Shown: positions 1-20,674 of the stretch, one piece after another
How positions within the stretch are numbered: position 1 is the first letter of the stretch
How the letters are laid out: every line of letters begins with the position of its first letter
DNA from: Candidatus Omnitrophota bacterium
GTDB taxonomy: Bacteria > Omnitrophota > Gorgyraeia > Ghiorseimicrobiales > Ghiorseimicrobiaceae
Assembly (NCBI GenBank): GCA_030681595.1
Contig: JAUXSB010000012.1
Location: 9,377-73,376 of the forward strand
Length of the DNA: 64,000 nucleotides
Reading direction: 5' to 3'
Position numbers and translations under genes: made by a program
The notes under the pieces: generated by a model
What the model was told of the DNA's origin: nothing
Databases searched by the model: none
The model's input: only the letters and a program-made list of their open reading frames with translations

Positions 1-3000
1 TGCCCCCAAGATAAACATATGGTTAGCGGTTATGTTTGTTTCCGCTACTGCTTGCGGCGTCTTAAAAGTAAACTGAATATCGCGCTGACCGGAAAAACCT
101 GCCCCGTCGCCTCTGAAATCTCTTAAGATGATGGCGCCGGCTAAATCATTTGCGCTATAATTACGGCCTCCGATGGAATATGTACCACCTCCGCCGAAAA
201 GCGAGTTAGTTATCGTGGCGCCGAAATTGTTCTTGCCAAAACCCGGGTTCACATCCAATCCGTTCGCCTCGTGGCTGAACAACGGCCTAAACCACCAATT
301 AACCCCGCCCTCTTCTCTTGGGTTTCTTGCCTCATAAAGCGCGGCACCCGCCTTGGTCATGCCTATGCCGGTGATTCCGCCTAAGTAATCCCCTAAACTA
401 TAACTATTTTTTATGCTCCCGTCGTGGAATTGCACTACTTTTTCCCCCTCTTGATTCTTCAAAATTCTCGTTCCGTTCAGGCCATCCTGTACAAATGTAT
501 ATCCTTCAGGTATAGGTGATAGATTATTATTTATAGAATATTTCATTGCCTGGTCAAAATTATCAAAAATCTTATCTTGATTATCAATTTTGAACTTACC
601 ATCTAAATAAGTAATCCCGTTTAATAATGCCGCGCTGCTGCCGGACAAATTCCCGTCAGCCTGCGGCATAATACTGTGATTCACAAGATCGGAAGCCTTG
701 GTATTTTGTAAGCTGCTGCTCCTTTGCGGGTAGAGCTTATTCATATTCTGCCAAGAACCTTTTAGATTATCCATCTGTTGTTTATCAAGCTTATCTTTAT
801 ACTTTGTTTCTAGCTCATCTACATCTTTAATCTTATCCATTTCGTCAAAAGGAAGATTGTAGCGTTGCGCAAGCGCATCAAGATATCCTTGCCTGTAATA
901 ATTTGGCTGCTGTATGTTATTTGCGCTTGAGCCTGAATAAGCCATATTGGTCTGAAGAGTATTAGTTTGTTCATAGCGTCCATTTTCAAACATAGGATTT
1001 TTAATCACGGGATTAAAAACTATGATTTTCTGATAACCCGGGCTGTTAAGATTACTAATTGTATAAATATTATTACTGCTATCCTGACGGTAACCCATTG
1101 CCGGCATGCCGAATATTTTATTGGCGTAATCGTATTTATACCCGGAAAACACATTGGAATTAATTGCTGCCTGCTGCAATAAATCCCTTGCGCCATAGTG
1201 TAAATTATCGCTTAAATACTCCATCATGGCCACGCCAAAGCCCTTAGCATGATTGGGGTCTTCTTCTGTCCCGGATGCGGCATTTTGGCCAATCATCGCT
1301 AAACCAGAAGTATAGTTATAACTTTCCCAGAGAGTAACGGGGTTTTTATCGAAATCCCTCTTCGTGTTTGCCCATGGGCTGCCAAAGCTCAAGGTATCAG
1401 TAATATATTTATCCCCGGCATCTCCCATGCTTACCAGTATCGACTGAAGGAACGAAGGATCTTTAGGTAACGAAATATCCGGAGATAATCCTTCAGTGAG
1501 TGTTGGGGAAATCTTACCTGCTCCGTAAAATGCCGCGCCTTGTATAAACGAACTAAGCATATAAGCAGTATAATTACGCCAGAAGGGATTCTCGTCTAAA
1601 TTCCACTTTTTGCCAATCGAGCTATGGCTCAACCAACTGCCTATACCGGCAGTAGCTAGAGACATTACCCCTTCAGTGACGCCTGTTTTAACCCCCTCCC
1701 ATAATATTTGCTTTTGAATATCTTTGTTCGTTACTTTATCAAACTCTATGTCGTATAAATCCTTAAAGGCATCAGTCTGGCCAATGGTCTTCCAATCTGC
1801 ATTCTTTGCCCCTGTATCTTGCGGGTTCTTTTTTAAATACTCGTCTCTTGCCCGTTCAAAGGTAATATTTGCCTTTGCCTTATCCTCTTGCTCATACGTA
1901 TTTAAACCCGCTGCCACACTATAGGCCGAACCGAAAATTGTGCCAAAGCCCATACCAACCATTGAAGAAAACGGCGAAGACTCGCTTATCCAGTTACGTT
2001 TCTTGGCATAATCCTCAATCATCCCGCCGGCAATTTTACTGACTAAATTAGGCATATTATCTACGATACCCGCCAGCCAAGCGTATTTTAGGGCACCCAT
2101 CTCTCCTGCTGCCTTATGTCCCTCCATAAGTTTTTTATATTCAGCGCTTTGCGGGTTCATATTTTTCGCCCTGTTCGCTATCGCTCCCTGCTTATTAAGC
2201 TTATATTGCTGATTACTCGGACTATCTAATAGGCCTTCCATAAGGCCTTGTGCGAACATACCGCCGACTTGCCCCAAGATATTTGATTGCCATTTACTGG
2301 TATCTTCCGGCACCCAGTTGTTCCTTCTGGCATAGTTATTAATTCCTTGCGTTACTAACCCGCTAGTAAAGCCTATGGCAAAACCCTTTCCTGTTCCGGC
2401 GTTTTTACCGCCTCCGGTATACATACTTAGGCCCATACCTAAAGCCGAGCCGAACATCTGATAGGTCTGCTGATGGCCTCCGGTAAGATATGCTAAACTA
2501 CCTGCCGCGCTTGCCAAATTACTGGAAATCATCCCACCGGCATAACCTACGGCAAGAGTACCGTAACCGCCAAAACTTGACATGAATGTTCCAGCTGCGA
2601 ACCCCCCCCGTGCATAGTTACCTAATCCGCCCATTACATAGGCCGATACAATCGAAATAGCAATATTCGTTCCTATCTTACCCCAATTCCAGTTATCTCT
2701 GCCTCCGTTGCGCTCGCGCGCTCCCAATACAGCCTTGGCTTCCTCTTCAGGAATTAAATTAAAGGCTACTGGTTTAAGATTGGAAGTAAGAATATATCCA
2801 CTAAAATTTTCTAAGAATTTTTCGCGAGGTAAGAAGGTATTGCCTTTATCATAAAAATAATAAACCTTCTCGTTATCTATTTTTGTAACCAAGACAAAAT
2901 GGCCATTTTGTTCGGGGTTCGGGGAAAGGTGCGCGATAAAAGGCGTAATTGAGTTCAGGGAGTCTATTGAGCTTATTGAATTGTTGAGTGATAATTTTGC

Positions 3001-3555
3001 CGGATAAAGCTCTAAACCGAAATATTCGGCGGTTTTATTTAAAGAGTATAAAGAATTTAAAATGGAAAAAGAATTTGTGGGACTAATATTACCCGATAGG
3101 GCATCAATCAGAATAAGCAGAGTGGACAATTCTTCTACCTTAACTTCTTTATTTTTAGCCAGTAACAAATTATATAAAACATAGGTGGAACAAGGCACAG
3201 TCTCGGTTTCTGGTTGCTTTAACCAAGAAACAAGGGATTTTATCTCATCTTTTGTCCATTTTTTGCCTTCCGGGATAGCTATCAATAGGCCGGGCTTTAA
3301 TTCAAGCTGACTTAATCTTTTATTGGCTAAGGGGGTAAGATACCGGGAAATACTCTCGGCAACCACTTTATTAAACAGCTCCGGGTAGGCAGTGATATTG
3401 GCGCCAATCTCAGCGGGCACAGAAACTCCTCCGTTTTGCCAGAGGATAGCCGGGTTATACTCTATAGCCCAGGCAACCTGCTCAGGCAAAAAAACAGCCA
3501 CTACTAAAAGCGCGATGGCCTTAACCCATTTGTGCCTACGCCAGTTGGTTAACAT
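1..3555 (-). CDS. Very large secreted protein, partial (runs off the window start, >1180 aa). N-terminal signal peptide, then a C39-like papain-fold cysteine peptidase domain, then a long Gly/Ala/Ser/Asn/Tyr-rich low-complexity region.
   Basis: Minus-strand ATG at 3555..3553 opens a frame with no stop through position 1 (spot-checked at several places). N-terminus MLTNWRRHKWVKAIALLVVAVFLPEQVAWA looks like a signal peptide. Candidate catalytic Cys in ETVPCSTYVLYNLL and His in NGHFVLVTKIDNEKVYYFYD resemble the C39/PF13529-like family. Downstream are many GG/GY/SS-rich repeats. Confidence 0.6.
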   Translation of the reverse strand, partial: MLTNWRRHKWVKAIALLVVAVFLPEQVAWAIEYNPAILWQNGGVSVPAEIGANITAYPELFNKVVAESISRYLTPLANKRLSQLELKPGLLIAIPEGKKWTKDEIKSLVSWLKQPETETVPCSTYVLYNLLLAKNKEVKVEELSTLLILIDALSGNISPTNSFSILNSLYSLNKTAEYFGLELYPAKLSLNNSISSIDSLNSITPFIAHLSPNPEQNGHFVLVTKIDNEKVYYFYDKGNTFLPREKFLENFSGYILTSNLKPVAFNLIPEEEAKAVLGARERNGGRDNWNWGKIGTNIAISIVSAYVMGGLGNYARGGFAAGTFMSSFGGYGTLAVGYAGGMISSNLASAAGSLAYLTGGHQQTYQMFGSALGMGLSMYTGGGKNAGTGKGFAIGFTSGLVTQGINNYARRNNWVPEDTSKWQSNILGQVGGMFAQGLMEGLLDSPSNQQYKLNKQGAIANRAKNMNPQSAEYKKLMEGHKAAGEMGALKYAWLAGIVDNMPNLVSKIAGGMIEDYAKKRNWISESSPFSSMVGMGFGTIFGSAYSVAAGLNTYEQEDKAKANITFERARDEYLKKNPQDTGAKNADWKTIGQTDAFKDLYDIEFDKVTNKDIQKQILWEGVKTGVTEGVMSLATAGIGSWLSHSSIGKKWNLDENPFWRNYTAYMLSSFIQGAAFYGAGKISPTLTEGLSPDISLPKDPSFLQSILVSMGDAGDKYITDTLSFGSPWANTKRDFDKNPVTLWESYNYTSGLAMIGQNAASGTEEDPNHAKGFGVAMMEYLSDNLHYGARDLLQQAAINSNVFSGYKYDYANKIFGMPAMGYRQDSSNNIYTISNLNSPGYQKIIVFNPVIKNPMFENGRYEQTNTLQTNMAYSGSSANNIQQPNYYRQGYLDALAQRYNLPFDEMDKIKDVDELETKYKDKLDKQQMDNLKGSWQNMNKLYPQRSSSLQNTKASDLVNHSIMPQADGNLSGSSAALLNGITYLDGKFKIDNQDKIFDNFDQAMKYSINNNLSPIPEGYTFVQDGLNGTRILKNQEGEKVVQFHDGSIKNSYSLGDYLGGITGIGMTKAGAALYEARNPREEGGVNWWFRPLFSHEANGLDVNPGFGKNNFGATITNSLFGGGGTYSIGGRNYSANDLAGAIILRDFRGDGAGFSGQRDIQFTFKTPQAVAETNITANHMFILGA

Positions 3556-3608: not shown

Positions 3609-3647
3609 TAACTTTACATTTTAAGCAATGCTTGAAATGTAAAGTTA
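3609..3647. repeat. Solo copy of the 37-39 bp palindrome (stems AACTTTACATTT / AAATGTAAAGTT) that also flanks the Y1 transposase at 13617 and 14578.
   Basis: Read directly in the sequence. Near-perfect hairpin with a single central mismatch, lying in the gap between the giant gene and the Flp gene. Confidence 0.85.
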
Positions 3648-4741: not shown

Positions 4742-5791
4742 TTAATTAAGCCCTTGCGCGTCTGTACTAATTAACTGCGACTCATAAGTATCGCTAAAGC
4801 TCCCCACAGAACCTCCGTCAGTTATGGCGCGGGACACAGAACGGATGCCTCCCCCGGTATTTGGGTCTGTGTAGCGCATATTCCAAATTCCTAAATCTTT
4901 GCTTGGCTGGTCGCGGGTTACCTTAACCGTTATTTCAGGTGCGTATTCGGAGTTGAAATCCAGATCTGCCATAGCGACAACAGGACAAGGAAGATAGGAG
5001 AAAGCCGTAACCCAGTTCCCGCAAGCACATACACCTGTTAGGGTACACATATTGGCGAAGCACACAACAGCACAAGCCAAACACACTCCAACAGAAATAA
5101 CACAAGCCGGGGGAGGGGCAGCAACAACCCAATACCAATAAACTGGAACAAGGAGACCGGGTATCATCGGTATCATTGGCACATCAGGCGCATCTACGTC
5201 TATAGTTAGGGTATTTGTCCTTCCATCCGCAGCCTGCCAAGAATAAGGGCTAAGTGAACCGGCATCGCAATCTTCGTCTTCCAAACAAGTCTGAAGCGGG
5301 CTTTTTCTTTGCAAATATTGGGCATAGGTCTCGCCCCAGTTCCTTGCTTTACCTTCAGTTATGTTAGCGTTGCTAAAGGCCGACTTATACGCCTGATTCT
5401 CCGCCATCTCATAGCCGTCTTCCAATGTTTTTATCGCAGAAGCATAAAGCATTGCCTCTGCCGCGATAAAGGAAAGCCATAACACGTACATCATTGTAGG
5501 GTATGCACAAAGATACCAAGGAATAACGAGCATGGCGACTTGTGTTTCAACATATGATTCAGCCATCTGGGAATTGATATCCACAAGGGCGTTCAAGGTA
5601 TTATTATGTATGGTAGCGCCTGCTAATGCGCCGGCATCCGCGGCATTGCCGGTATTGGTCTTGGTTAAACCGACCTTGCCCAGATTTACCGCCACCATCA
5701 TCGCCATAATCAAGACCACGATTACGGCAATCATAAATGGCGTAACCTGCCCGCTTCTATAACGTAATCTTAATACTGCTGTGCCGCGCAT
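4742..5791 (-). CDS. TadG-like pilus assembly protein (349 aa) containing an unusual cluster of 11 Cys residues
   Basis: TadG-type N-terminus GQVTPFMIAVIVVLIMAMMVAVNLG. Cys-rich hydrophobic stretch ACVISVGVCLACAVVCFANMCTLTGVCACGNWVTAFSYLPCP. Confidence 0.6.
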   Translation of the reverse strand: MRGTAVLRLRYRSGQVTPFMIAVIVVLIMAMMVAVNLGKVGLTKTNTGNAADAGALAGATIHNNTLNALVDINSQMAESYVETQVAMLVIPWYLCAYPTMMYVLWLSFIAAEAMLYASAIKTLEDGYEMAENQAYKSAFSNANITEGKARNWGETYAQYLQRKSPLQTCLEDEDCDAGSLSPYSWQAADGRTNTLTIDVDAPDVPMIPMIPGLLVPVYWYWVVAAPPPACVISVGVCLACAVVCFANMCTLTGVCACGNWVTAFSYLPCPVVAMADLDFNSEYAPEITVKVTRDQPSKDLGIWNMRYTDPNTGGGIRSVSRAITDGGSVGSFSDTYESQLISTDAQGLN

Positions 5792-6618
5792 TTATCCCTC
5801 TCTGCCTGTGCCTGAAGAAGTAAATTTGTGGCATCTGCCCTTATCGCATTGCCTTTATCTCGTTCTAACTGAGCATCTATACGTTTCTGCAGGGCCTGCT
5901 GAAGTAATTGTTGTTCAAGTGCCCGATACTTAACTTCTTCATTCAGATAGTAATCCCGTTGGCCTATCCAGTAATCCCTTTGACTAGAATAACTAGAACA
6001 GTCGCAATAACCGCAACCATTCATACAAGTAGCGTATAAACTCGCCCAGTAATTGGCTTCACTATTTGCGTTGTTTGCCTCCGCTGCGTAATAATCTGCT
6101 TGTGCTCCATACACAGCTGCCTGTTGCTCTAATAGGTATGCGTCTAAATCTAACAGCGCCGCGTTATAATCATATTTGGCAGCATCTATGTTCATTTGGC
6201 TAACCTGCGCCTCCAAAGCTGTGGCGGCCGGGCAAGGATCAGCCGCTCCACCTCCTCCGTCGCCTCTGCCGCCCCCTGTGCCTGAGCCAGGAGTATAAGT
6301 TCCGGGTGAGGGGAAATTTTTTCCTTTTAACACCCAATCTTCATTTAACTGCCTGCGTGCGTATACCGGCCACTTCCCCGGAGCAGTATTACTTCCCGCG
6401 TCCAGCCGCGAAGCAACAAACGGGGGTTCCTTCTCCACAAGTTCATTGTTATACCAGACCCCGATACGCACTGCTCCAGCAATAAAGAAAATAAGCGCTA
6501 CTAAAGCAAGGGCCATTTCTAAAGTTACCTGCCCGCCAATGCTTTGTGGCGTGGCCTGCCCGCGCCTGCAGGTTGCTCTTTTGTAATCTAAATCTTTTAA
6601 CTTATAATTCATAACCAC
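5770..6618 (-). CDS. TadE-like pseudopilin (282 aa) with a Gly-rich segment and an Ala/Gln/Tyr-rich coiled-coil-like C-terminus
   Basis: TadE-like N-terminus GGQVTLEMALALVALIFFIAG, followed by GTGGGRGDGGGG and then repeated AA/QQ/YY motifs. Confidence 0.6.
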   Translation of the reverse strand: MVMNYKLKDLDYKRATCRRGQATPQSIGGQVTLEMALALVALIFFIAGAVRIGVWYNNELVEKEPPFVASRLDAGSNTAPGKWPVYARRQLNEDWVLKGKNFPSPGTYTPGSGTGGGRGDGGGGAADPCPAATALEAQVSQMNIDAAKYDYNAALLDLDAYLLEQQAAVYGAQADYYAAEANNANSEANYWASLYATCMNGCGYCDCSSYSSQRDYWIGQRDYYLNEEVKYRALEQQLLQQALQKRIDAQLERDKGNAIRADATNLLLQAQAERDKCAAQQY

Positions 6619-9369: not shown

Positions 9370-10275
9370 TTACAACCCCATGCCTCCGCCGCTGCCGCGC
9401 AAGAACTGTAAAAGTACCGGGCCGCCTACAATAACCATAACCACCGGCAGGATAAACACCATCAAAGGGAATAACAGCTTTACCGGCGCCTTAAAGGCCA
9501 TTGCCTCGCCTCTCTGGAAACGCCGCACGCGCAATTCTTCCGCCTGTATTTCAAGCGCCTCGCCCATGGGAGAACCCATTTTATCCGCCTGAATAAGCGT
9601 CCGGACAAAAGAGGTTGTCTCCGGCAGGTTTACTCTCCATGACAGATTCTGCAATGACTGCTTGCGGCTCCTGCCTATCTGGCTTTCCCTCCACATCTCC
9701 GATAATTCATCACGCAGCGGGCAGGGCTTAAAATCCTTCATCACGCGGCTTACCGCCAGCATAAAATCCAGGCCGGCGTTAACGCACAAATGCAAGAGAT
9801 CGATAACATTAGGCAAATCCTTGATTATTTCATTCTGGCGTTTGGTAATTTTCTTTTTTAGCCACATATCCGGATAAAAAAAAGCCAGAAATCCGGCTAC
9901 AATAATAAAATTCGGCTTGGTAGAAAATATAATTGAACCGAATAATAGGGCGGATAAAACACAGAGCAATTTAAAAGAAACAAAATCGAGTAAAGTCATT
10001 ACTCCGCCGGCAGAAAGTAATGCCCTTTTTAGCGGTTCTTGTTTAATATAAGGCAATGCCTTTGCCGATATCGGTTCCATAAATCTCAGGGCCTTTTTAA
10101 GCAGATTACGCTGCTGCTTCTTTTTCTTGGCTACCTCAGCCGCTTCTTCCTCCGGCAGGCGCAAAAATAATTCCTCTTTTTGAGCAACAAGCTGCTGTAC
10201 TACTAAAAACACGCTCCCGAAAATCAACGCCATATATACGTAATGAAATACTGATGTGTCCACCTTACACCTCAA
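9370..10275 (-). CDS. tadC: TadC-like inner-membrane pilus assembly protein (T2SS-F domain)
   Basis: 301 aa with multiple transmembrane segments. C-terminal FKAPVKLLFPLMVFILPVVMVIVGGPVLL is typical of TadC/GspF-fold proteins. Confidence 0.75.
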   Translation of the reverse strand: MRCKVDTSVFHYVYMALIFGSVFLVVQQLVAQKEELFLRLPEEEAAEVAKKKKQQRNLLKKALRFMEPISAKALPYIKQEPLKRALLSAGGVMTLLDFVSFKLLCVLSALLFGSIIFSTKPNFIIVAGFLAFFYPDMWLKKKITKRQNEIIKDLPNVIDLLHLCVNAGLDFMLAVSRVMKDFKPCPLRDELSEMWRESQIGRSRKQSLQNLSWRVNLPETTSFVRTLIQADKMGSPMGEALEIQAEELRVRRFQRGEAMAFKAPVKLLFPLMVFILPVVMVIVGGPVLLQFLRGSGGGMGL

Positions 10276-11473
10276 TCTTGCTTAATTTAACGATTAAAAA
10301 TGCCCCTATAATCTCTGAGACCACAGAATAAACAATTAATCCCTGCCCTATTTTATCTTTAAGCATCATTTCAAAAAATTGTGGGTTAAATCCGGCGACC
10401 ATCATCGCAAAAGCTATAGGCAGGAATATCATGATAATGCCTTGTAATTTTGCCTGCGTACAGAGAGACTTAACCCTGCCGATAAGTTTATTTTTCTCGC
10501 GAATCGTAAAATTTAACTGCGAAAATGTGCGCGTTAAATCGCCGCCGGTTTCACGCGCTACTAATATCGCGGTAACCACTAAATCCAGTTCTTCAATTTT
10601 AAGCCTGTCCTTAAGATGCACAAAGGTTTCTTCCAGCGGAACACCCATGCGGTTCTCCCGTACCAGCAGGTTTAATTCCTGCGATATCGGCTGCGGCATC
10701 TCCAGTACCACTTCTTCGATTGACTGAATCAAGCTTAAGCCCGCCTTCAAAGAACTGGAAAGGATCATAAGCGCGTCGGTTAATTGCGCCCTGAACATAT
10801 TCCGGCGCCTTGCTTCTATCTGTTTAAGCGTAATCGCCGGCAAAACTGAAGCAATGCCTGCGCCAATAACCAAGCCTAATATAATATTGCGGCATATTAT
10901 TATAAATACCAACCCTAACACAACTACCGAGATAAGATACATATGAAAGAGGCGCTGAGATGGGATTTCAATAAAAATAGCGCTTAATCTATGCGACATT
11001 TTGTCTAACGCCGCCGATTTCGGAGCAGGGATTTTATTTAAATACTCACTATAAGCGTCTAAAAAGCTTAGTGCTGTTTTCTTGGTTTCAACCGTAGGCT
11101 CGGCCTCAACCTGAGGCTGAGACTGAGGAACGTTTTTGTTTTTGTTGTAGGCGTTTTTAATATTACTAAAAATTGTGTTTATGCCTTTGTAGATATTCTC
11201 CAGTATTACAAACTTTTTAGGGGCCTTAGCATCCTCTTCTTTTTGAGGAACGTTTTTGTTTTTGTTATAGGCGTTTTTAAGATTACTAAAAATTGTGTTT
11301 ATGCCTTTGGAGATATTCTCCAATATTACAGACTTTTTAGCGGCCTTAACAACCTCTTCTTTTTTAAGTACGGCTTCACCGGCAGCTGTGGGTAAAGACG
11401 CGGCCATTGGCGAAGCAGCTGGCTTCGTCATTTTAAATTTTTCAAGGCTTTTGAATAGCTTTATAAAACTCAT
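10265..11473 (-). CDS. tadB: TadB-like pilus assembly protein (T2SS-F domain) with an N-terminal extension made of a tandem 40-aa repeat
   Basis: The C-terminal ~300 aa are TadB-like (IPSQRLFHMYLISVVVLGLVFIIICRNI...). The N-terminal 100 aa hold two copies of ILENI(S/Y)KGINTIFSN(L/I)KNAYNKNKNVPQ. Confidence 0.7.
   Translation of the reverse strand: MSFIKLFKSLEKFKMTKPAASPMAASLPTAAGEAVLKKEEVVKAAKKSVILENISKGINTIFSNLKNAYNKNKNVPQKEEDAKAPKKFVILENIYKGINTIFSNIKNAYNKNKNVPQSQPQVEAEPTVETKKTALSFLDAYSEYLNKIPAPKSAALDKMSHRLSAIFIEIPSQRLFHMYLISVVVLGLVFIIICRNIILGLVIGAGIASVLPAITLKQIEARRRNMFRAQLTDALMILSSSLKAGLSLIQSIEEVVLEMPQPISQELNLLVRENRMGVPLEETFVHLKDRLKIEELDLVVTAILVARETGGDLTRTFSQLNFTIREKNKLIGRVKSLCTQAKLQGIIMIFLPIAFAMMVAGFNPQFFEMMLKDKIGQGLIVYSVVSEIIGAFLIVKLSKIEV
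11125..11364. repeat. Tandem 2 x 120-bp direct repeat inside the tadB coding region
   Basis: The two copies are about 95% identical and in-frame, so they encode the 40-aa protein repeat. Confidence 0.85.
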
Positions 11474-11765
11474 TTTAAATACTCCAAAAAAAAATCCGGA
11501 TTACTCAAAACCTGACTTTCATCGGCTTTCGGTAACCCGGTCAACAAAATCTAGAAATACACAAACAGCTTAAAAATCAGAAATTATCTGTAGCTGTTTC
11601 TGCGTTCCTAATTATTGACATCTATATTTTGTCCCGTGGCTTTGCTCACTCCGCCTAAAGCATCGGAGTTCGCCTTTATCGTTGCCGTGCTTCTAATTAC
11701 AATTAAAATATACCCTAAAATCTCCCCTTTGTCAATATATTTTTTTTAGGCTTTTGCAAACGTTT

Positions 11766-13346
11766 TCAGGCTTTTTTTACTTTTAAAATCAACCTTTTCC
11801 CTAAAAACATTAGGCTGCTTTCATTGATTCTTTCTGCGGCATAATACAGCGATTCCAGAGCCCCTTTATCCTGCTGATCAGCGTGAGGGGACAATTCAAG
11901 CGAAATTAAGTCTCGTTCCATACTCCTTTGGCCTGCCAATTCGTATAATACCCGCTTCAGCTGTAAAAAATCCCAAGATTGACATTCGCCAGGCAAATAA
12001 CGCTGTTTAACGTAAGTATTAAGATTATCCCTTGCTAAATTGAGTATTTTATCCAATTCATTAAGCCGGTAAGGCAACGGTTTGGCTTTCCATATAGCCA
12101 AAGCCATGATATTAATATAGTTATGATAAATAAATTGGGGCGGTTGGGAGAAACCATTAACTATATAGGCAAAGGAATCCCACGGTTTAAGCCAGCGCCT
12201 TAAATATAAGGCCGCCACATCCTCTTTTGATTTCTCCTGAGTAGCAAAATTGGTAGCGAGAAGCACCCCTTGCTTAACGCCAGGCCCTTCTTTTAACAGG
12301 ACGCATCTTAATTTAATCTCTTGTGAAACAATGAGTTGTGGAAAAATAACTTCTCCTTCTTGAACAGAATATTCCTTTGCGTTTATAGGCGCCGTTATTG
12401 CTTTAATCGGCGGGAAAAGCTTAATTCTCAGGCGCGCCTGCTGAGTGGGAAATAAACCAAAAATAAAATTTCTTTTTACGGCCGGAATATAAACAATCTT
12501 TTTCAACTCTTGCCCCAATCCATGAATCACCATGCGAGAAATGCTTTTTGATTCCGCTCCTTGACAGGAAAGGATAAAATTCGCTGTCTCCGGCCCTATA
12601 TTTTTAGCTAAAGAAAGTAAAATTATCGGCTGTTTAGCCTCTAAAATAGTATTTTTTATATAACTATCTGTAAAACAATGGCTTACGGATAAATTATCCG
12701 GGATATCAGCTGAAGGCCAAAGTGCTCTAAACTGGGGGTCAATATAAAAAATACTGCCGTCAATTAAGCCAAAATGTAAATTTTTTGCTAATTTAATCTC
12801 TAATTTTTCGGCTAATTTGGTTTTATCGCAGGACTGCATCCTTGCGTTTAAATCGTTTGCTAATTTGGCTAACGAGGCTGGATTAACTCTGCCACCAGTC
12901 ACCTCCCATAATCCTTGCTTATCGTAACTACTTAATTTATCGATAGTTAAATCAAATAATGGCAGATATAACAACGTGCGTAAGCCTGGGGCAATCTTAC
13001 CCATTTTTCGGCTTGGCTTTTCGCAAAATAAACCTTGGATTAATCTATCCACTAGGCCTAATTCGTTCTCCGCGGCAGCCAAAATAAATACCCCTGCACG
13101 GTCTAATATTATTTTATTATCTTTAAGAGTAAGATTTGTACCTTTCGGGCGGGATCGTGCTCTTCCTACTTTACTGCTTAAACCAGCTTGTTTTATAATC
13201 TCATTAACCCCTGATTTGGAAACATTAATTTTAAACTTTTTAAAAACAAGTTCGCTAATCTTACGGCAACTCAAAAATGAGGAAGCCTTCTTTTGTTCAA
13301 GAATAAAGCTTATAATTTTATCAGTAATTTTATATATTACGCCCAT
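11766..13346 (-). CDS. Putative DDE transposase (526 aa), tentatively of the IS4/IS1634 type
   Basis: N-terminal HTH-like region. YLRRW near the C-terminus resembles the Y-x2-R-x3-E-x6-K signature region of IS4-type transposases. Lies next to the RAYT element in an AT-rich insertion. Tentative. Confidence 0.35.
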   Translation of the reverse strand: MGVIYKITDKIISFILEQKKASSFLSCRKISELVFKKFKINVSKSGVNEIIKQAGLSSKVGRARSRPKGTNLTLKDNKIILDRAGVFILAAAENELGLVDRLIQGLFCEKPSRKMGKIAPGLRTLLYLPLFDLTIDKLSSYDKQGLWEVTGGRVNPASLAKLANDLNARMQSCDKTKLAEKLEIKLAKNLHFGLIDGSIFYIDPQFRALWPSADIPDNLSVSHCFTDSYIKNTILEAKQPIILLSLAKNIGPETANFILSCQGAESKSISRMVIHGLGQELKKIVYIPAVKRNFIFGLFPTQQARLRIKLFPPIKAITAPINAKEYSVQEGEVIFPQLIVSQEIKLRCVLLKEGPGVKQGVLLATNFATQEKSKEDVAALYLRRWLKPWDSFAYIVNGFSQPPQFIYHNYINIMALAIWKAKPLPYRLNELDKILNLARDNLNTYVKQRYLPGECQSWDFLQLKRVLYELAGQRSMERDLISLELSPHADQQDKGALESLYYAAERINESSLMFLGKRLILKVKKA

Positions 13347-13616
13347 TTTAGCTTATATATAAATGGCCAAACAGATTTTTCTATTAGATTGGACATTTAT
13401 ATATAGTAATTCCTTGAAAAACATGTTGTTATGCTAATAGATACATTAAATTTGGACATTGATTTAATCATTATAGTTGTATTTTAATTTATTATCTTAA
13501 TCTATCGCTTTAATTTTCACTGCCTCTTTCCTAAAATATACTATACGCGCATAGAGCAGCATATACCCCACATCTGTATATACCCCGCATGGAGAGCTCT
13601 TATATGTAAACCTGAT

Positions 13617-14614
13617 AACTTTACATTTTAAGCATTGCTTAAAATGTAAAGTTATTTTGTCAAATTAAAGGCCTTACTTATGGTAACGCGGGATTGACCT
13701 AAAATAGCTGCAATTTCACCTATTTTATAACCATTAGCTCTTAATTGCTTAATCAGAAACTCCCTTGCTTTGATATCCTGCGGCGATCTCAACCGTTGCT
13801 TCCCTTCCATCTTTTCCAAATAAGCTTCTATTTCTTTATCCGCTAACATGCCTTTTGAGGCCGCGATATCTCCTTCTTCTCCTATAACAATTCTTAACGA
13901 TTTAAGCAATTTAGCCCTAAAACTGACTAAATCAGCTTTCCCTCCTCTAGAAATATTTACTTCTACAGACAACATACTGCTTAATAAACGCTGGTAAATG
14001 CTCCTGGCGTTTTCTAAATCCGCGGCTAAAGGCCTTAAGAGGTATTCATATCTTACAAATGTTTCTTTATTCATATTATCCACATATAGATTTAACGACG
14101 ACCATCTGTAAGGTTTCTCTGCCCCGGCTAACCCGGCTTTATAGGGGTTAAGGTGAATGTAAATTGATGCTGCTAACGCATAGCTATCATCTAAACACAA
14201 GGATTGCCTGAATGCGCCGCAAAATACATGCCCTTTTCTGCTGTATTTTTTGTTAAAATATCTCGCGTAAGACTGGAACAAGTTCTGCATTGCCTTGGGT
14301 AAATTTACCTTATTTATCCTCAAAAGTAAATGCAGATGATTTGACATCAGGCACAAAGCAAATACATCTAATTCAAATTTCTTAGCGCAGTCTTTTAACT
14401 GGCCTAAAAAATATAGATAATCACTGTCTTCTAAGAATAAGGGCTCGCTGCCGCAGGAGTGTTGAGTCAGGTGGGAAATAGCGCCGGTAAAATTTAGTTT
14501 GTTCCTTGCTAAGAAAATACGATTTATTTTATTCTGCTCGGCCAAATCTATTATGTCCATTGTGCGCATTGTACAATAACTTTACATTTTAAGCAATGCT
14601 TAAAATGTAAAGTT
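13617..14614. mobile_element. IS200/RAYT-like unit: a Y1 HUH transposase gene flanked on both sides by identical 37-bp palindromes
   Basis: Palindromes at 13617-13653 (perfect AACTTTACATTTTAAGCA T TGCTTAAAATGTAAAGTT) and 14578-14614. They sit 8 bp from the transposase start and overlap its stop codon. Confidence 0.75.
13652..14569 (-). CDS. Y1 (HUH) tyrosine transposase, IS200/RAYT family, with a C-terminal HTH extension (305 aa)
   Basis: HuH motif SNHLHLLL. Conserved YFNKKYSRKGHVFCGAFRQS block comparable to the RAYT consensus GHLWQGRF(K/Y)S. C-terminal GYKIGEIAAILGQSRVTISKAF is HTH-like. Confidence 0.7.
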   Translation of the reverse strand: MRTMDIIDLAEQNKINRIFLARNKLNFTGAISHLTQHSCGSEPLFLEDSDYLYFLGQLKDCAKKFELDVFALCLMSNHLHLLLRINKVNLPKAMQNLFQSYARYFNKKYSRKGHVFCGAFRQSLCLDDSYALAASIYIHLNPYKAGLAGAEKPYRWSSLNLYVDNMNKETFVRYEYLLRPLAADLENARSIYQRLLSSMLSVEVNISRGGKADLVSFRAKLLKSLRIVIGEEGDIAASKGMLADKEIEAYLEKMEGKQRLRSPQDIKAREFLIKQLRANGYKIGEIAAILGQSRVTISKAFNLTK

Positions 14615-14960
14615 ATTTGATAATAGAGAGCTGACCGCCGATAGAAAGGGAGAATTTCTCGATTGTGCCCGCAGGTAATTCGACAGCGCATTTTGCGCCA
14701 AAGGCAGATAAAACAAACTTAAAAGGCGTAACATTGCTGCTTAATTTTAATATCCTATTCTGGCTATCCAAGAATATAATATCTATAGAAAAGCGCATAA
14801 AAAAGGTATGCAGGGAACTGGCAGGCTTAATTATTAAAGCGGTTGAGGCATCTAAGGAGTCGCGGAATAAAAGGCCCTTCATCCTGCTAAAAAAATTATC
14901 AGCGAATTCGGCATGTTCGGCAATTATTACTTTCGTATCCGGATTAATTATTTTATACAT
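14613..14960 (-). CDS. DUF192 family protein (about 115 aa counted from the internal Met)
   Basis: MYKIINPDTKVIIAEHAEFADNFFSRMKGLLFRD...FFMRFSIDIIFLD...AVELPAG matches the DUF192/COG1430 pattern. The ORF track extends it upstream into the cpaEF stop. Confidence 0.65.
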   Translation of the reverse strand: MYKIINPDTKVIIAEHAEFADNFFSRMKGLLFRDSLDASTALIIKPASSLHTFFMRFSIDIIFLDSQNRILKLSSNVTPFKFVLSAFGAKCAVELPAGTIEKFSLSIGGQLSIIK

Positions 14961-14970
14961 TGCGGGGTTT

Positions 14971-17154
14971 TTAAGCCTGGGGGGCCTTAAATATATCTTT
15001 GGAAATTTTAATACCGCGAACAAGCATGTTGTCATAAAAAGAAGGCACGTACCCTGTAGCCTGGAAATTGCCTATTACTCTGTGTTTTTCATCGGTTCCG
15101 GTCTGCTTAAAAACAAATATATCATGCATGCCTATATGGTTTTCATCAATCATACCGGTTACTTCACTTACAGCGAGTATCTTGCGGGTACCGTCGGAGA
15201 GACGGGCTGAATGAATAATCATTTCGATAGCGGAGGCAATCATTTCTCTGATTGCGCGTACAGGAAGCTCCGCGCCGCTCATCAGTATCATTGAGTCAAG
15301 GCGCGCCAAAACATCATGCGGGGAGTTAGCATGCAAAGTCGTCATTGAGCCGTCATGGCCGGTATTCATTGCCTGAAGCATGTCCAAGCTTTCTGCGCCG
15401 CGGCATTCGCCAATGATTATACGATCCGGCCTCATTCTCAGCGTATTGCGGAATAGATCCCTGATGGTGATAGCGCCCTTGCCTTCCACGTTAGGCGCGC
15501 GGGATTCAAGGCGCGCCCAATGGTCCTGGCTTAATTTGAGTTCCGCCGCATCCTCAATGGTAATAATGCGTTCATTCTCGGGAATAAATGATGACAGGAC
15601 ATTTAAAACTGTAGTCTTACCGGAACCTGTACCCCCGGAGACAATAATGTTCTTACGTATACTAACACAGGCCTCTATAAAATCGGCCATCGGCTCGGTA
15701 AGCGTGCCGAATTTTATCATATCCTGCACGGTAAGCCTTTCCCTGGCAAATTTCCTTATTGTCAACATCGGCCCGTCCAAAGACAAAGGCGGGATAATCG
15801 CATTTACACGCGAGCCATCTGACAAGCGCGCATCCACCATCGGCACAGACTCATCAATACGCCTGCCCAAGGGAGCGATAATCCTCTCAATAACCTGCCT
15901 GACCTGATCATTAGAAAGAAACTTCTTATCTGTCTTTACTATTTTCCCGGAACGCTCCACGTATATATCATCCTTATTATTCACCATAATATCGGTTATG
16001 GTGGCGTCTGCTAATAATTCCTCTAGTGGCCCTAACCCCAGCGTTTCATCCATCAGCTCCTTAATTAAACGCTCGCGTATCTCGGGAGAAGAAATAAACG
16101 CCCCTGCCTCCTTAGCCAATGTATTAGCGATCGCCTTTCCTGTCTTTATTCTTAACTCTTCTTTCTTGACAGGGTCTCTTAAGTCCACTTCCATCTTTTT
16201 TAAATCTAATTCGGTTATCAAGCGCTGGTGCACCCGGCGTTTTAAATCAAGGATATCGCCGCTGATTAGGTTTTTCGACGGGCCTAAAACTTCTTTTAAA
16301 CCGTGCTTATCTAAAAATATTGCCTGCGAAATGCTACCCAGTCCTTGTTTGGATAAATCGCTTAGCGTAACCGCGCTGGAAATATCTAAGTGCTCTAAGA
16401 AAATACCTTTCTCGTTGACTAAGGTTTCGCCCAGTTTTTTTATGGCGACACTCACTCTTGAAGCCGGGCTGTCTAATACTACCGGCATCCTCCTGTTTAA
16501 AGACATGCCTACTATTTTACCCTCGCTGGGAATACGGCAAATTATATCGCAGGGTAAGACTAACTTTACTTCTTGGTATGGCACTCCGCCCATGCTGTCT
16601 GCGCGGTTTAATACCGCCTTCATCATGATTAGGGGAAAATGCAAAGACTGGAGCACTTCCAAGGCCCATTTGGTCTGATATATCGATAATATATCCGGGC
16701 TGGTCAAGAGGATAACCAGATTGGCATAATTTAAAGCAGACACCAAGCTGTCCGTAAAAGTCCTGCCCGCGTCTGCGATTATATAATCATAATATGGTTT
16801 TAAATCGTTAAATATCTTCTTTACTAAAAAATCATCCACATAACCAACTTGTGCCGGCCTTAATACCGCCGGCAAAAAATCTACCCCTGACTCAGCGTGA
16901 TGGCTGATATAATTCTTTATATCCTGCTTATCCCTGTCTTCCTTCTTTAAAGACACCAGTTCCACCGCCGCAACCTTGGGATTTATACTGATAGAACGGT
17001 ACATATCTCCAACCGCCTCTAAGTCTAAATCTACCAAGGCTACCTTCTTTTTCCTGTCTTTAGCTAAAGAAACCGCTAAATTAACCGCCAGAAAGGTTTT
17101 GCCGGTGCCGCCCTTTGTACCGAAAACTATTATCGTCTTAGCTACGGAATCCAT
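14971..17154 (-). CDS. Single-polypeptide fusion of a CpaE/TadZ-like ParA-type ATPase (N-terminal half) and the CpaF/TadA secretion ATPase (C-terminal half); 727 aa
   Basis: N-terminus IIVFGTKGGTGKTFLAVNLA shows a deviant Walker A. C-terminus GGTGSGKTTVLNVL...RIIIGECRG is the TadA/VirB11-family signature. One continuous ORF. Confidence 0.8.
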   Translation of the reverse strand: MDSVAKTIIVFGTKGGTGKTFLAVNLAVSLAKDRKKKVALVDLDLEAVGDMYRSISINPKVAAVELVSLKKEDRDKQDIKNYISHHAESGVDFLPAVLRPAQVGYVDDFLVKKIFNDLKPYYDYIIADAGRTFTDSLVSALNYANLVILLTSPDILSIYQTKWALEVLQSLHFPLIMMKAVLNRADSMGGVPYQEVKLVLPCDIICRIPSEGKIVGMSLNRRMPVVLDSPASRVSVAIKKLGETLVNEKGIFLEHLDISSAVTLSDLSKQGLGSISQAIFLDKHGLKEVLGPSKNLISGDILDLKRRVHQRLITELDLKKMEVDLRDPVKKEELRIKTGKAIANTLAKEAGAFISSPEIRERLIKELMDETLGLGPLEELLADATITDIMVNNKDDIYVERSGKIVKTDKKFLSNDQVRQVIERIIAPLGRRIDESVPMVDARLSDGSRVNAIIPPLSLDGPMLTIRKFARERLTVQDMIKFGTLTEPMADFIEACVSIRKNIIVSGGTGSGKTTVLNVLSSFIPENERIITIEDAAELKLSQDHWARLESRAPNVEGKGAITIRDLFRNTLRMRPDRIIIGECRGAESLDMLQAMNTGHDGSMTTLHANSPHDVLARLDSMILMSGAELPVRAIREMIASAIEMIIHSARLSDGTRKILAVSEVTGMIDENHIGMHDIFVFKQTGTDEKHRVIGNFQATGYVPSFYDNMLVRGIKISKDIFKAPQA

Positions 17155-17194: not shown

Positions 17195-18739
17195 CTAATT
17201 ATTTTTAAATTCTATGGGTACATCTATCCATATATCGGAAAGCCCGCTTGCCGCAGGAAGTGGTGGGAAAGGCGCTATTGATTTTACAATATTCACGGAC
17301 GCCTCGTCCAGAAGCTCGCTCCCTGAAGTTTTACCTACCAAAACATTTATCAGGCGGCCGTCGGAAAGTATATGCATGCTCAATAAAACTTCACCTTGCG
17401 CGTTATTCCTGCGCGCGATCTCGGGGTAAACGACGGCGGCGCCTATTTTTGCCTGAACACTCCGGATATAATTTAACAATGTTTTCGGAGACGACTGATT
17501 CAAGAGAGATACCTTATCTTTATCCAGGCGGCTAGCCACCGGCTGCGATATAATCCGCGGAGTCAAAGAAACAACGAGCTCTGTGTCGCCATGGGAAAAG
17601 TCCCGGGAACGAAACAATGCCCCCAATATAGGCAGCTCTCCTAGGCCTGCGACTTTACTAACATTAGTCTCATCCTTATTTTTAATTAACCCGGCAAGAA
17701 ATATTGTCTGGTTATCTCTTAAATACAGTTCTGTTTCTGCGCTCCTCGTGGCAAAAGCAGGAATGCTTATTCCCGCGGCAACAACAGCATTAGCCCTGTC
17801 TATTTCACTTACCTCGGTCTTTAGCAATGCCTGGATAAAGCCATTTGGCTTAACTATAGGCTTTATATTCAAAGAAATCCCGTATTTTTTATAAGTTACA
17901 TTGAGGGTGGTCCCTCCGCTGGAAACTGTAGCAGTCAATACCGGGACCTCGCCTCCAACCAGAAAAGTTGCTTCCTTGCCGCTTAGACAGACCAGCTTCG
18001 GCCTTGACAATATGCGGCCTTTGCCTTGGGTCATAATAAGATTAAGCTGGTAGCTGATAGCGCTTCTTTCCCATGTGCGGCTTAATTGAAAAACTTTATA
18101 TAGCTCGTTATCGGTCTCCGGATTTTTCTCTGTCCACTTAAGCCCCGCAGAAGACTTGTCGCCCAAAGCCGTAGTCCAGTCAAATCCCAAATCCTCTAGT
18201 GCGTTCTTGGATATTTCCATAATTTCCACGTCTATCTGAACCAGCTCGCTATACGGCTTAAGCTCCACCATATCTATTGTTTTTTCCTTAAAAACCCCGA
18301 GGATAGAATCTAATTTCTTTTTTTCATCCTCGGTATCCACAGTTCCTAAAAGTATGACTTTGTCTTCTTCGTTACTCAATTTTGAGTACACATCCGGGTA
18401 ACCTAATTCGGCGACTAATTTATCGATTCTTAACTTTACATCACTCAAGCCCTCCGAGACCACCCGGATAGAATACGCCTTTTGGCCGGACTTATCCCAA
18501 ATCACCAACGTAGTCCTACCGGCAGACTTGGCAGTAACCACAACCTCCTTCTCAGACACTTTGGTTACATCTGCCGCCTGCGGATTACTGATTGCCACGC
18601 GGTTAGGAATAAAAACAGGAATTACCTTCATCTGAGTGACTTCTAAAACCAACTCATTGGCGTCTTCCTGGGCAAAACACAACCCTACCATTGCTATCCC
18701 TATAATAATAAATATTGTCAGGATTATATTTTTTTTCAT
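17195..18739 (-). CDS. cpaC: CpaC/RcpA secretin carrying a C-terminal TonB-C-like domain (514 aa)
   Basis: Secretin core (LSRPKLVCLSGKEATFLVGGEVP, GLGELPILGALF). C-terminal VVYPEIARRNNAQGEVLLSMHILSDGRLINVLVGKTSGSELLDEASVNIVK matches the TonB C-terminal fold motif. Confidence 0.8.
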   Translation of the reverse strand: MKKNIILTIFIIIGIAMVGLCFAQEDANELVLEVTQMKVIPVFIPNRVAISNPQAADVTKVSEKEVVVTAKSAGRTTLVIWDKSGQKAYSIRVVSEGLSDVKLRIDKLVAELGYPDVYSKLSNEEDKVILLGTVDTEDEKKKLDSILGVFKEKTIDMVELKPYSELVQIDVEIMEISKNALEDLGFDWTTALGDKSSAGLKWTEKNPETDNELYKVFQLSRTWERSAISYQLNLIMTQGKGRILSRPKLVCLSGKEATFLVGGEVPVLTATVSSGGTTLNVTYKKYGISLNIKPIVKPNGFIQALLKTEVSEIDRANAVVAAGISIPAFATRSAETELYLRDNQTIFLAGLIKNKDETNVSKVAGLGELPILGALFRSRDFSHGDTELVVSLTPRIISQPVASRLDKDKVSLLNQSSPKTLLNYIRSVQAKIGAAVVYPEIARRNNAQGEVLLSMHILSDGRLINVLVGKTSGSELLDEASVNIVKSIAPFPPLPAASGLSDIWIDVPIEFKNN

Positions 18740-19735: not shown

Positions 19736-20674
19736 CTATTTAATCTCGCTGGTTTGGATATCTATTTTCGCCTCCCGCATCAGCTTGCCGACTAAGGCAT
19801 CTATGGCTTCTTTTTGCTTATCCTGCTCCAGCTTTGCCTTAATATTATCCCAGAGTTCAGATAGAGGTTTTTCTTTACCGCCTTTTTTCTCTTCTACTTT
19901 GACGATATAATAATCATTGGCGTTGGGGTCTTTAAGTACCTGGCTGACTCCGCCTACATCCAAAGAATAAATCGCAATATCAAACTGGGGAAATTTTGTC
20001 CCCGGGATAATAAACCCTAAATCGCCGCCGTTAGATGCGCTTTTATCAACAGAATGTTTCTTGGCCGCTTCGCCAAAATCGGTTCCCTGTAAAACTTCAA
20101 TAAGCGCGGCCTTTGCCTGTGATTCGCTCTTAGTCATAATCATCCGCACACGCCTTTCTTCCGCCTCGCGCATTAAATTTTTATTGTTATTATAGTAACT
20201 CTCTATGTCGGTAGATGTTACTTTTATACTCTCCACTTCTTCCTTAATCAGGCTGGCGACTAACAGGCTCATATTAAATTCACCTACGGCTTTCTTTACA
20301 TCATCTTTTTTGTCTAAACCCTTATCCAGCGCCTCCTGATAAAGCAGCCTCTGCCTGACTAAATCATTTTTTAACAGCTCTATCTTTTGCTCGGTCGTCT
20401 CTATCTTTTTTATGCCGATATCTTCCTCGGGATACATTTCTTTTAAGTCATCAATTTGCTTATTATAATTTTTAACATAGCTGTCTAATTCCTCGAGGCT
20501 GATTACCATATCGTTAACCTTAGCAATAATCTTGCCTTCGGGGACAAAATATTCTCTTTTTTTAGAAGACGCCTGATTTTTATTTAATAATTTATTGATG
20601 CTATCGCAACCGGTAACCAAAAAAACTGCCGCGATTATTACCCCTAAGATTTTAACTGCGTCCTTCTTGTGCAT
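19736..20674 (-). CDS. PrsA/SurA-like parvulin peptidyl-prolyl isomerase; lipoprotein
   Basis: Lipobox LVTGC. Parvulin domain GDLGFIIPGTKFPQFDIAIYSLDVGGVS. A strong AAAGGAGGG ribosome-binding site precedes the Met at 20674; the ORF track starts at an upstream ATG (20722). Confidence 0.75.
   Translation of the reverse strand: MHKKDAVKILGVIIAAVFLVTGCDSINKLLNKNQASSKKREYFVPEGKIIAKVNDMVISLEELDSYVKNYNKQIDDLKEMYPEEDIGIKKIETTEQKIELLKNDLVRQRLLYQEALDKGLDKKDDVKKAVGEFNMSLLVASLIKEEVESIKVTSTDIESYYNNNKNLMREAEERRVRMIMTKSESQAKAALIEVLQGTDFGEAAKKHSVDKSASNGGDLGFIIPGTKFPQFDIAIYSLDVGGVSQVLKDPNANDYYIVKVEEKKGGKEKPLSELWDNIKAKLEQDKQKEAIDALVGKLMREAKIDIQTSEIK

Follow-up and report, generated by a model that had tools for sequence, protein, structure and literature searches.

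The Tad pilus locus of an uncultured Candidatus Omnitrophota bacterium is contained in a 64-kb stretch of its genome (the window, whose coordinates are used throughout), and two open reading frames (ORFs) of 305 and 526 amino acids (aa) lie in this locus between a DUF192 gene and tadB. These 2.85 kb had been flagged in a first-pass annotation as a single mobile element that splits the locus, a reading that is refuted by gene order in related loci. With good confidence, the segment is best explained as two independent units located at the boundary of two Tad transcription units. The 526-aa gene belongs to the vertically inherited core of the Omnitrophota Tad locus and is not an insertion, and only a cassette of about 1 kb, consisting of the 305-aa gene (a predicted Y1/HUH enzyme) and its flanking palindromes, is a variable occupant of the locus. 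For annotators this means that the two genes should not be taken for a locus-inactivating insertion. Genomic clues to a host-dependent or predatory lifestyle of uncultured Omnitrophota come mainly from Tad pili and giant proteins (PMC10066038).

All Tad genes of the window lie on the minus strand, as first reported, and are transcribed in the order rotamase, RcpC, secretin-TonB_C fusion, CpaE-CpaF fusion (CpaEF), DUF192, 305-aa ORF, 526-aa ORF, tadB, tadC and pilin-like genes. The 526-aa ORF (11766-13346, minus strand), whose product is 100% identical to the NCBI entry Q8L26_03630, belongs to an unannotated family that is conserved in Omnitrophota Tad loci. Pfam annotates none of the homologues at 24-40% identity, and an exhaustive profile search for the family recovered 931 clusters (at 50% identity), of which 510 have E ≤1e-30. 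In the first contexts examined, the homologue always lay between DUF192 and the pilin genes, with a Y1 gene beside it in loci L001, L004, L008 and L018 and without one in L006 and L007. A metagenome scan added 80 loci to give 86 in all, of which the 64 that contain DUF192 are informative. DUF192 is found no more than 1.3 kb from the family gene in 62 of these 64. The two genes are co-directional in 51 loci. In the other 13 only the family gene is inverted, and in these the riboswitch-led operon is located upstream of it in divergent orientation. Identities between pairs of family genes follow those of CpaEF (Mantel r 0.67 across 37 loci, a value reached by none of 2000 permutations). No terminal inverted repeats were found in the 300-nt flanks of the gene in 58 loci, where the best inverted matches are 8-12 nt long and mostly AT-rich, with a few repetitive extragenic palindromic (REP) motifs among them. 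The gene has one copy in the window. As it occurs in both orientations, it was also considered as part of a programmed invertible segment, an idea that was rejected because flanking inverted repeats are lacking.

That a composite element, carrying a Y1 and a DDE transposase gene, inserted into an ancestral, contiguous cpaF-DUF192-tadB operon thus retains practically no probability. Transposase ancestry of both proteins would suit such an event, as would a block GC content about 5 points under the window mean, but the family gene occupies this place whether the Y1 gene is present or not, co-diverges with CpaEF and has no terminal repeats. Moreover, the palindromes enclose the Y1 gene alone, and DUF192 is directly joined to tadB in none of the informative loci. 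The comparison with relatives had been proposed in the first-pass annotation as the check on its insertion, and it yielded what was named there as the sign of an ancestral arrangement: the same gene at the same place without repeat boundaries. The AT-richness reported for the block is real, yet modest. The 305-aa and 526-aa genes each have a GC content of 0.38 against a window mean of 0.432 (standard deviation 0.028, in 1.5-kb windows), but the DUF192 (0.382) and rotamase (0.394) genes are equally AT-rich.

A Y1/HUH gene between palindromes

The product of the 305-aa ORF (13652-14569, minus strand) is identified by its sequence as a Y1/HUH enzyme of the TnpA_REP lineage, that is, a REP-associated tyrosine transposase (RAYT), with an added C-terminal helix-turn-helix (HTH). 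The strings HLHLLL and GHVFCGAFRQS, for which it had first been called an HUH protein, are present, and the Pfam model Y1_Tnp is matched at 37 bits (cut-off 23). Among NCBIfam models the best is REP_Tyr_transpos (NF047646), at 51.4 bits, and the IS200-type TnpA model (NF033573) yields 13.7 bits, which is short of its cut-off of 55. The HUH motif (H78-L-H80) and the catalytic tyrosine (Y137 in SIYIHLNP) are both intact. The best solved relative of the family profile, which was built from 52 members, is the Escherichia coli TnpA_REP (4ER8); in the alignment the HUH motif falls on LPEHMHC and SIY137IHLNP on DY115IYINP. Throughout the 52 members H80, Y137 and N141 are invariant and H78 is conserved, as is S135 beside the catalytic tyrosine in the family profile, and the (near) invariance of the HUH and tyrosine residues implies that the DNA-cleaving chemistry has been retained. 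The HTH makes up the C-terminal third of the protein, with weak HTH_7 and HTH_38 matches in the window protein and precomputed HTH_23, HTH_7 and HTH_38 matches in its homologues. The gene is present in a single copy in the window.

Perfect REP-like palindromes frame this gene on both sides. The one at 14576-14616, with A as its centre base, covers the DUF192 stop codon (14613-14615) at one end and stops 6 nt short of the Y1 ATG at the other, and the one at 13615-13655, with T as its centre base, overlaps the Y1 stop codon (13652-13654). Perfect flanking palindromes had been noted before, as identical repeats of 37 bp; each in fact extends over 41 nt (20 + 1 + 20), and the unpaired centre base is the only difference between them, so that the flanking copies are exact reverse complements of each other. 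They are the longest palindromes in the whole 64 kb and, as single-stranded DNA, fold into hairpins of -17 to -18 kcal/mol (z about -8.3). The 37-nt core of the palindrome has three copies in the window, compared with none in shuffled sequence. The third, at 3610-3646, is about 10 kb from the Y1 flanks; it is a solitary intergenic copy with one mismatch, and a large gene starts 55 nt downstream of it. An Rfam search of 11000-15200 returned only chance matches of miRNA precursors to the palindromes.

The large gene next to the solitary copy (2-3555) is cut off by the left edge of the window; its product, of 1184 aa or more, includes a Peptidase_C39 domain. In L001 a solitary palindrome (19906-19942) occupies the equivalent place, 51 nt before a gene for a protein of 23,052 aa.

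A palindrome scan of species-representative genomes found the repeat in Omnitrophota only, with seven of nine stretches coming from one genome, CG11 (PCWA01). Here, the copies occupy at least 10 sites on at least 6 contigs, nearly all of them where co-directional genes are separated by a few dozen bases, and several copies extend over a stop codon. The orthologous Y1 gene of CG11 (50% identical) has the same place in the Tad locus and is bracketed by a near-identical palindrome. Between species, the stems show compensatory changes (AAGCA/TGCTT, AGTCA/TGACT and ATGCA/TGCAT), and such paired changes indicate that the dyad itself is under selection; flanks beyond TAAC...GTTA are not conserved. 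The palindrome-flanked layout recurs in L001, L018, L019 and L021. CG11 has a second Y1-HTH paralogue (41% identical), which is located between purD and purE and bracketed by a different palindrome, and a third example of the layout, again with its own palindrome, is found between glycosyltransferase genes. The palindrome of L019, which represents a second family, had no match in the other loci searched.

Judged by this arrangement, positions 13615-14616 appear to be a REPtron-like cassette, in which a Y1/HUH gene is held between its cognate hairpin palindromes. The REPtron pattern as encountered here consists of one enzyme gene per hairpin family, hairpins on either side of that gene, and solitary hairpins elsewhere. 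By analogy with E. coli TnpA_REP, the enzyme would recognize the folded palindrome on single-stranded DNA, nick it and rejoin it, and these reactions would spread solitary palindromes into short intergenic gaps while the Y1 gene itself would remain in place. The E. coli REPtron (4ER8; Quentin et al. 2018, PMC6006769) shares with the window cassette the Y1 HUH core, the HUH motif, the tyrosine in a YxxxNP helix, a W-x-S motif, the position of the gene between cognate hairpins, the scattering of the same hairpin in intergenic DNA, as seen in CG11, and paralogues that differ in hairpin family. A RAYT/REP system with an HTH-bearing enzyme and perfect palindromes would be unusual, and it occurs in a phylum from which none had been described before.

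Several differences weigh against placing the cassette among REPtrons. The window-type protein has an extra C-terminal region of about 150 aa that ends in the HTH, and its score with the REP_Tyr_transpos model is under the equivalog cut-off of 80. The hairpin is a perfect 20-bp palindrome in place of the canonical imperfect stem and lacks the GT[AG]G foot. Copy number appears low, in the tens rather than the hundreds, with only three copies in the available 64 kb of the window genome. In addition, Y1 proteins with C-terminal HTH tails have been classified as TnpA_Y1 subclass 2.1 (TIRYT) and reported without REPs (PMC6006769). This subclass, which has a C-terminal HTH_23, HTH_28 or DnaA_C-like domain and the repeat consensus GGGG[AT][CG]A[CG] (PMC6006769), resembles the window protein in joining a Y1 core to a C-terminal HTH and in the conserved serine (S135) beside the tyrosine, and the window flanks can be read as terminal inverted repeats. 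The flanks here are, however, hairpin palindromes that are also scattered as solitary copies, and the protein is no more than a candidate for subclass 2.1.

The unit of palindrome, Y1 gene and palindrome might alternatively be an autonomous IS200-like or TIRYT-like element that moves as a whole, its solitary palindromes being footprints or miniature derivatives. This is improbable. It would account for Y1-HTH paralogues that sit in unrelated operons (purD-purE, glycosyltransferase), co-directional and tightly enclosed by their own palindromes, for flanking copies that qualify as exact terminal inverted repeats of 42 nt, and for short Y1 cassettes that are gained or lost between near-identical loci. 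Yet paralogues within a genome are only about 41% identical and are therefore not recent copies, and the Tad-locus copy has kept its site and orientation in the window, L018 and L001 although the proteins are 40-54% identical. The weak IS200 score points the same way, and the gain or loss of a short cassette is bounded by REPs, which fits REP-REP recombination rather than transposition. The cassette also departs from the IS200/IS605 pattern in being a single copy in the window and in having the same palindrome at both ends rather than distinct left and right hairpins.

More improbable still is that the palindromes are not mobile at all and serve as operators for the Y1 HTH, or as hairpins selected at gene ends to stabilize or attenuate mRNA, with the Y1-HTH protein acting as a regulator. 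A perfect 20-bp dyad would suit a dimeric HTH protein; copies are found inside operons, over stop codons and, in two genomes, about 50 nt upstream of the giant gene; and the hairpin abuts the Y1 start codon, where no ribosome-binding site is visible. Against a regulator of this kind stand the invariant or nearly invariant HUH and tyrosine residues of the 52 homologues, the spread of palindromes among functionally unrelated genes, and the possession by each paralogue of its own palindrome family, as in RAYT-REP pairs.

The junction of DUF192 and the 526-aa gene often holds RAYT/REP elements. A Y1 gene lies between the two in 26 of the 64 informative loci and is of two types. The long HTH form, co-directional with DUF192, is restricted to three loci (the window, L018 and L001), and a short form of about 160 aa is found in 23, always convergent with DUF192 and flanked by GGGACGTC/GGGACACC-type repeats. 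L031 and L054, whose CpaEF proteins are 96% identical, differ at the junction by about 790 nt that correspond to a short Y1 cassette bounded by REPs. Some loci without a Y1 gene still have such REP pairs at the junction. It is unlikely that the long and short junction genes are simple orthologues: identity to the window protein is 41% for long-form paralogues from elsewhere but only about 30% for the short forms, and orientation and repeat family differ as well.

The filled site of L031 extends over 5030-6003 and the empty site of L054 over 5830-6003, with GGGACACC-type REPs at the bounds; the empty site keeps one REP pair. Many public short-read contigs with Y1-HTH genes have lengths of about 930-980 bp, equal to the spacing between the flanking palindromes, which suggests that assemblies break at these repeats.

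Possible transposase ancestry of the 526-aa family

It is rather likely that the 526-aa family descends from a transposase, and the window protein is most likely an exapted IS4/Tn5-type transposase that now functions as a sequence-specific DNA-binding protein. This would add a likely bacterial case of transposase exaptation. The HTH N-terminus and the string YLRRW noted in the first-pass annotation are both present: an N-terminal winged HTH matches HTH_33 (E 1e-3), and Y381-L-R-R-W385 lies in the large domain. HTH_33 is matched by 40 of 46 family members, and an IS630 model matches the HTH region in 43 of the 46. The NCBIfam model IS4_1 weakly matches seven of them (best E 5e-5) and, in the two matches examined (the window protein and P0007), covers the same segment, before and including Y-x2-R-W. 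An AlphaFold model of the window protein from 106 sequences has a mean predicted local distance difference test score (pLDDT) of 89.9 and a predicted template-modelling score (pTM) of 0.81, and the five best fold matches found by Foldseek in the PDB are all Tn5 transposase/inhibitor chains (E 8e-4, probability 0.89).

Similarity to Tn5/IS50 of the IS4 family extends to the layout of the protein, which has an N-terminal DNA-binding domain, a core with a beta-rich insertion, and a helix with Y-x2-R-W followed by EE. Candidate DDE columns can be recognized in the family alignment, where D203 is present in 100% of members, column 250 is D or E in 85% and column 390 is E or D in 97%. The distance from column 250 to column 390 is 140 residues. 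In Tn5, D188 and E326 are 138 residues apart.

These signals could instead have arisen by chance in a family without transposase ancestry, whose members would be HTH regulators or assembly factors specific to the lineage and built on a new fold. Such an origin is on the unlikely side, and several observations agree with it and weigh against exaptation. The Foldseek template-modelling score against Tn5 is only 0.18-0.20. Aligned with a Tn5-family profile by hhalign, the family gives a non-significant E of 0.25, although the same segment is covered co-linearly, and hhalign of the family against the Tn5 sequence also lacks significance. Sequence searches of the PDB with the protein and with the family profile gave no match, nor did a fold search of BFVD with the model, and the core is without a match in the PDB profile search or in Pfam. 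No Pfam DDE domain matches the window protein, DDE_Tnp_1_4 is matched by one of the 46 members, and IS4_1 reaches 12.3 bits on the window protein compared with a cut-off of 115. Furthermore, the window protein has isoleucine at column 250, so that this acidic residue is missing, has aspartate at column 390, and departs from the conserved DFSRKIE motif. Differences from Tn5/IS50 itself include the absence of significant sequence similarity, a far shorter D1-D2 spacing (47 versus 91 residues), and a gene that has no terminal inverted repeats and is kept as a single copy in a fixed place, co-diverging with its neighbours.

In favour of transposase ancestry is the agreement of three independent methods on one segment, the last beta-strands and the Y-x2-R-W helix (Tn5 222-324; IS4_1 248-288), together with five best PDB fold matches that are Tn5 without exception, an N-terminal HTH that in 40-43 of 46 members resembles the HTH models of transposases, and the near-equal spacing of 140 and 138 residues. 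The earlier claim that both proteins are transposase-like is thus firmly borne out for the 305-aa protein and weakly for the 526-aa protein, through its transposase-type HTH and its IS4/Tn5-like signals; in Pfam, the expected Y1_Tnp match was obtained for the former and a DDE match was not obtained for the latter.

A broader reading that joins both units is offered tentatively, as something that may well prove otherwise. In it, an IS4/Tn5-type transposase would have been captured early in Omnitrophota, might still be catalytically competent, and would now be a dedicated, autoregulated DNA-binding factor of a Tad pilus and giant-protein locus with a role in attachment or predation, encoded right next to the promoter of the c-di-GMP riboswitch. 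At the same time, the HTH-bearing TnpA_Y1 enzymes, similar to subclass 2.1, would be the first of their kind with their own dispersed perfect-palindrome REPs.

Candidate control elements of the two transcription units

The promoter region of the 526-aa gene (13386-13460, minus strand) includes two direct AATGTCCAA(T/A)(C/T)T boxes at 13449-13460 and 13386-13397. Of 50 loci, 49 have the heptamer ATGTCCA ahead of the family gene; its typical positions relative to the ATG are -84 and -19, and the pair brackets a TTGACA-N17-TATACT promoter. In the usual form there are two direct AAAATGTCCAATCTGG boxes, one just upstream of TTGACA and the other after the -10 element but ahead of the ribosome-binding site. 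Outside the promoter of this family the motif is nearly absent. The ATGTCCAATCT boxes look like a putative autoregulatory operator, and the 526-aa protein probably regulates its own gene through these two boxes on either side of the promoter; more speculatively, it may act on the adjacent tadB promoter too. The protein is a candidate binder of the conserved boxes.

The ATGTCCAATCT box was also considered as the mark of a locus-wide regulon. This was rejected, as the box is confined to the family gene's own promoter save for one pair before the giant gene of L007. That locus, at 20015-20076 and 20444-20527 between tadC and the giant gene, has two high-scoring ATGTCCA-type boxes and a c-di-GMP-I-GGC riboswitch, and it is the sole place where such boxes are found outside the promoter of the family gene.

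A second type of box, GAAAACGTTTGC, lies at 11756-11767 (minus strand); it overlaps the 526-aa stop codon and stands 30 nt ahead of the -35 hexamer of the promoter described below. Of 36 loci, 28 have its general form, GAAAACGYTTTC (AAANCGNTTKC), and its distance to the -35 hexamer of the riboswitch promoter is 30-31 nt in every case. This dyad is a candidate regulator-binding site. It can be written as GAAAACG(C/T)TTTC and often touches the stop codon of the family gene. The promoter that follows (11707-11735, minus strand) is of the sigma-70 type and near consensus, TTGACA-17-TATATT with 11 of 12 matches, and serves the tadB-tadC-pilin operon; an equivalent TTGACA-N16-18-TATATT promoter is present in 35 of 36 related loci.

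Downstream of this promoter lies a putative aptamer of the cyclic di-GMP class I type (c-di-GMP-I; 11527-11683, minus strand). As in the GEMM-I family (RF01051), the consensus GGCAA...GCAAAGCCACGGGAC...CCGGGUUACCGAA is present, the element stands upstream of pilus genes as it does in many bacteria, and a terminator comes after it. The window copy differs in that about 90 nt are inserted into the second hairpin, and its score of 30.2 bits (E 2.3e-5 in a 341-nt search) falls under the gathering threshold, the gathering scores being 35 and 59. In 13 related loci the orthologous place yields RF01051 matches that exceed the gathering score, and leaders at the same place are exemplified by L001 11624-11770, L006 12019-12151 and L026 7775-7907. 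Across Omnitrophota this leader, with its promoter and terminator, directly adjoins the 526-aa family gene. A terminator-like hairpin with a run of nine U residues (11486-11540, minus strand; -22.9 kcal/mol, z -3.6) is located just before the tadB ribosome-binding site, and its 5' arm (11530-11540) shares bases with the 3' strand of the aptamer. Because of this overlap with the terminator stem, the layout suggests an ON switch at high c-di-GMP, in which ligand binding is predicted to prevent termination.

The tadB-tadC and pilin genes would accordingly have a promoter of their own, acting through the c-di-GMP-I riboswitch. An own promoter makes tadB-tadC independent of read-through from DUF192, and with the riboswitch leader it makes polarity from upstream genes unlikely. 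The suggested polarity of an insertion on the pilus genes is accordingly improbable, the 526-aa gene and tadB-tadC each having a promoter. What emerges is a fixed control region in the Tad locus that comprises a transposase-like HTH gene, operator-like boxes, a second box, a strong promoter and a c-di-GMP riboswitch, and that provides concrete handles on how Omnitrophota switch pilus expression.

In L095, the strand opposite the family gene carries a second, high-scoring c-di-GMP-I riboswitch (2945-3029, minus strand; 75 bits) some 350 nt upstream of that gene, and the available 3.3 kb upstream contain neither DUF192 nor CpaEF.

Neighbouring Tad genes

The remaining Tad genes described here are likewise on the minus strand. 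Two of them, tadC (9370-10275) and tadB (10265-11473), follow the riboswitch leader. DUF192 (14613-15035), the CpaE-CpaF fusion (14971-17154) and the secretin gene (17195-18739) precede the Y1 cassette. The 140-aa DUF192 ORF overlaps the end of CpaEF by 65 nt (14961-15035); as DUF192 homologues are 113-117 aa long, its true start is probably an internal methionine at about 14960. Both the fusion of CpaE(TadZ) to CpaF(TadA) in the ATPase gene and that of a C-terminal TonB_C domain to the secretin are kept in all related loci examined. The 5' part of tadB (11124-11363) contains a tandem duplication of 120 nt, 93% identical, that doubles a 40-aa segment of the N-terminal extension.

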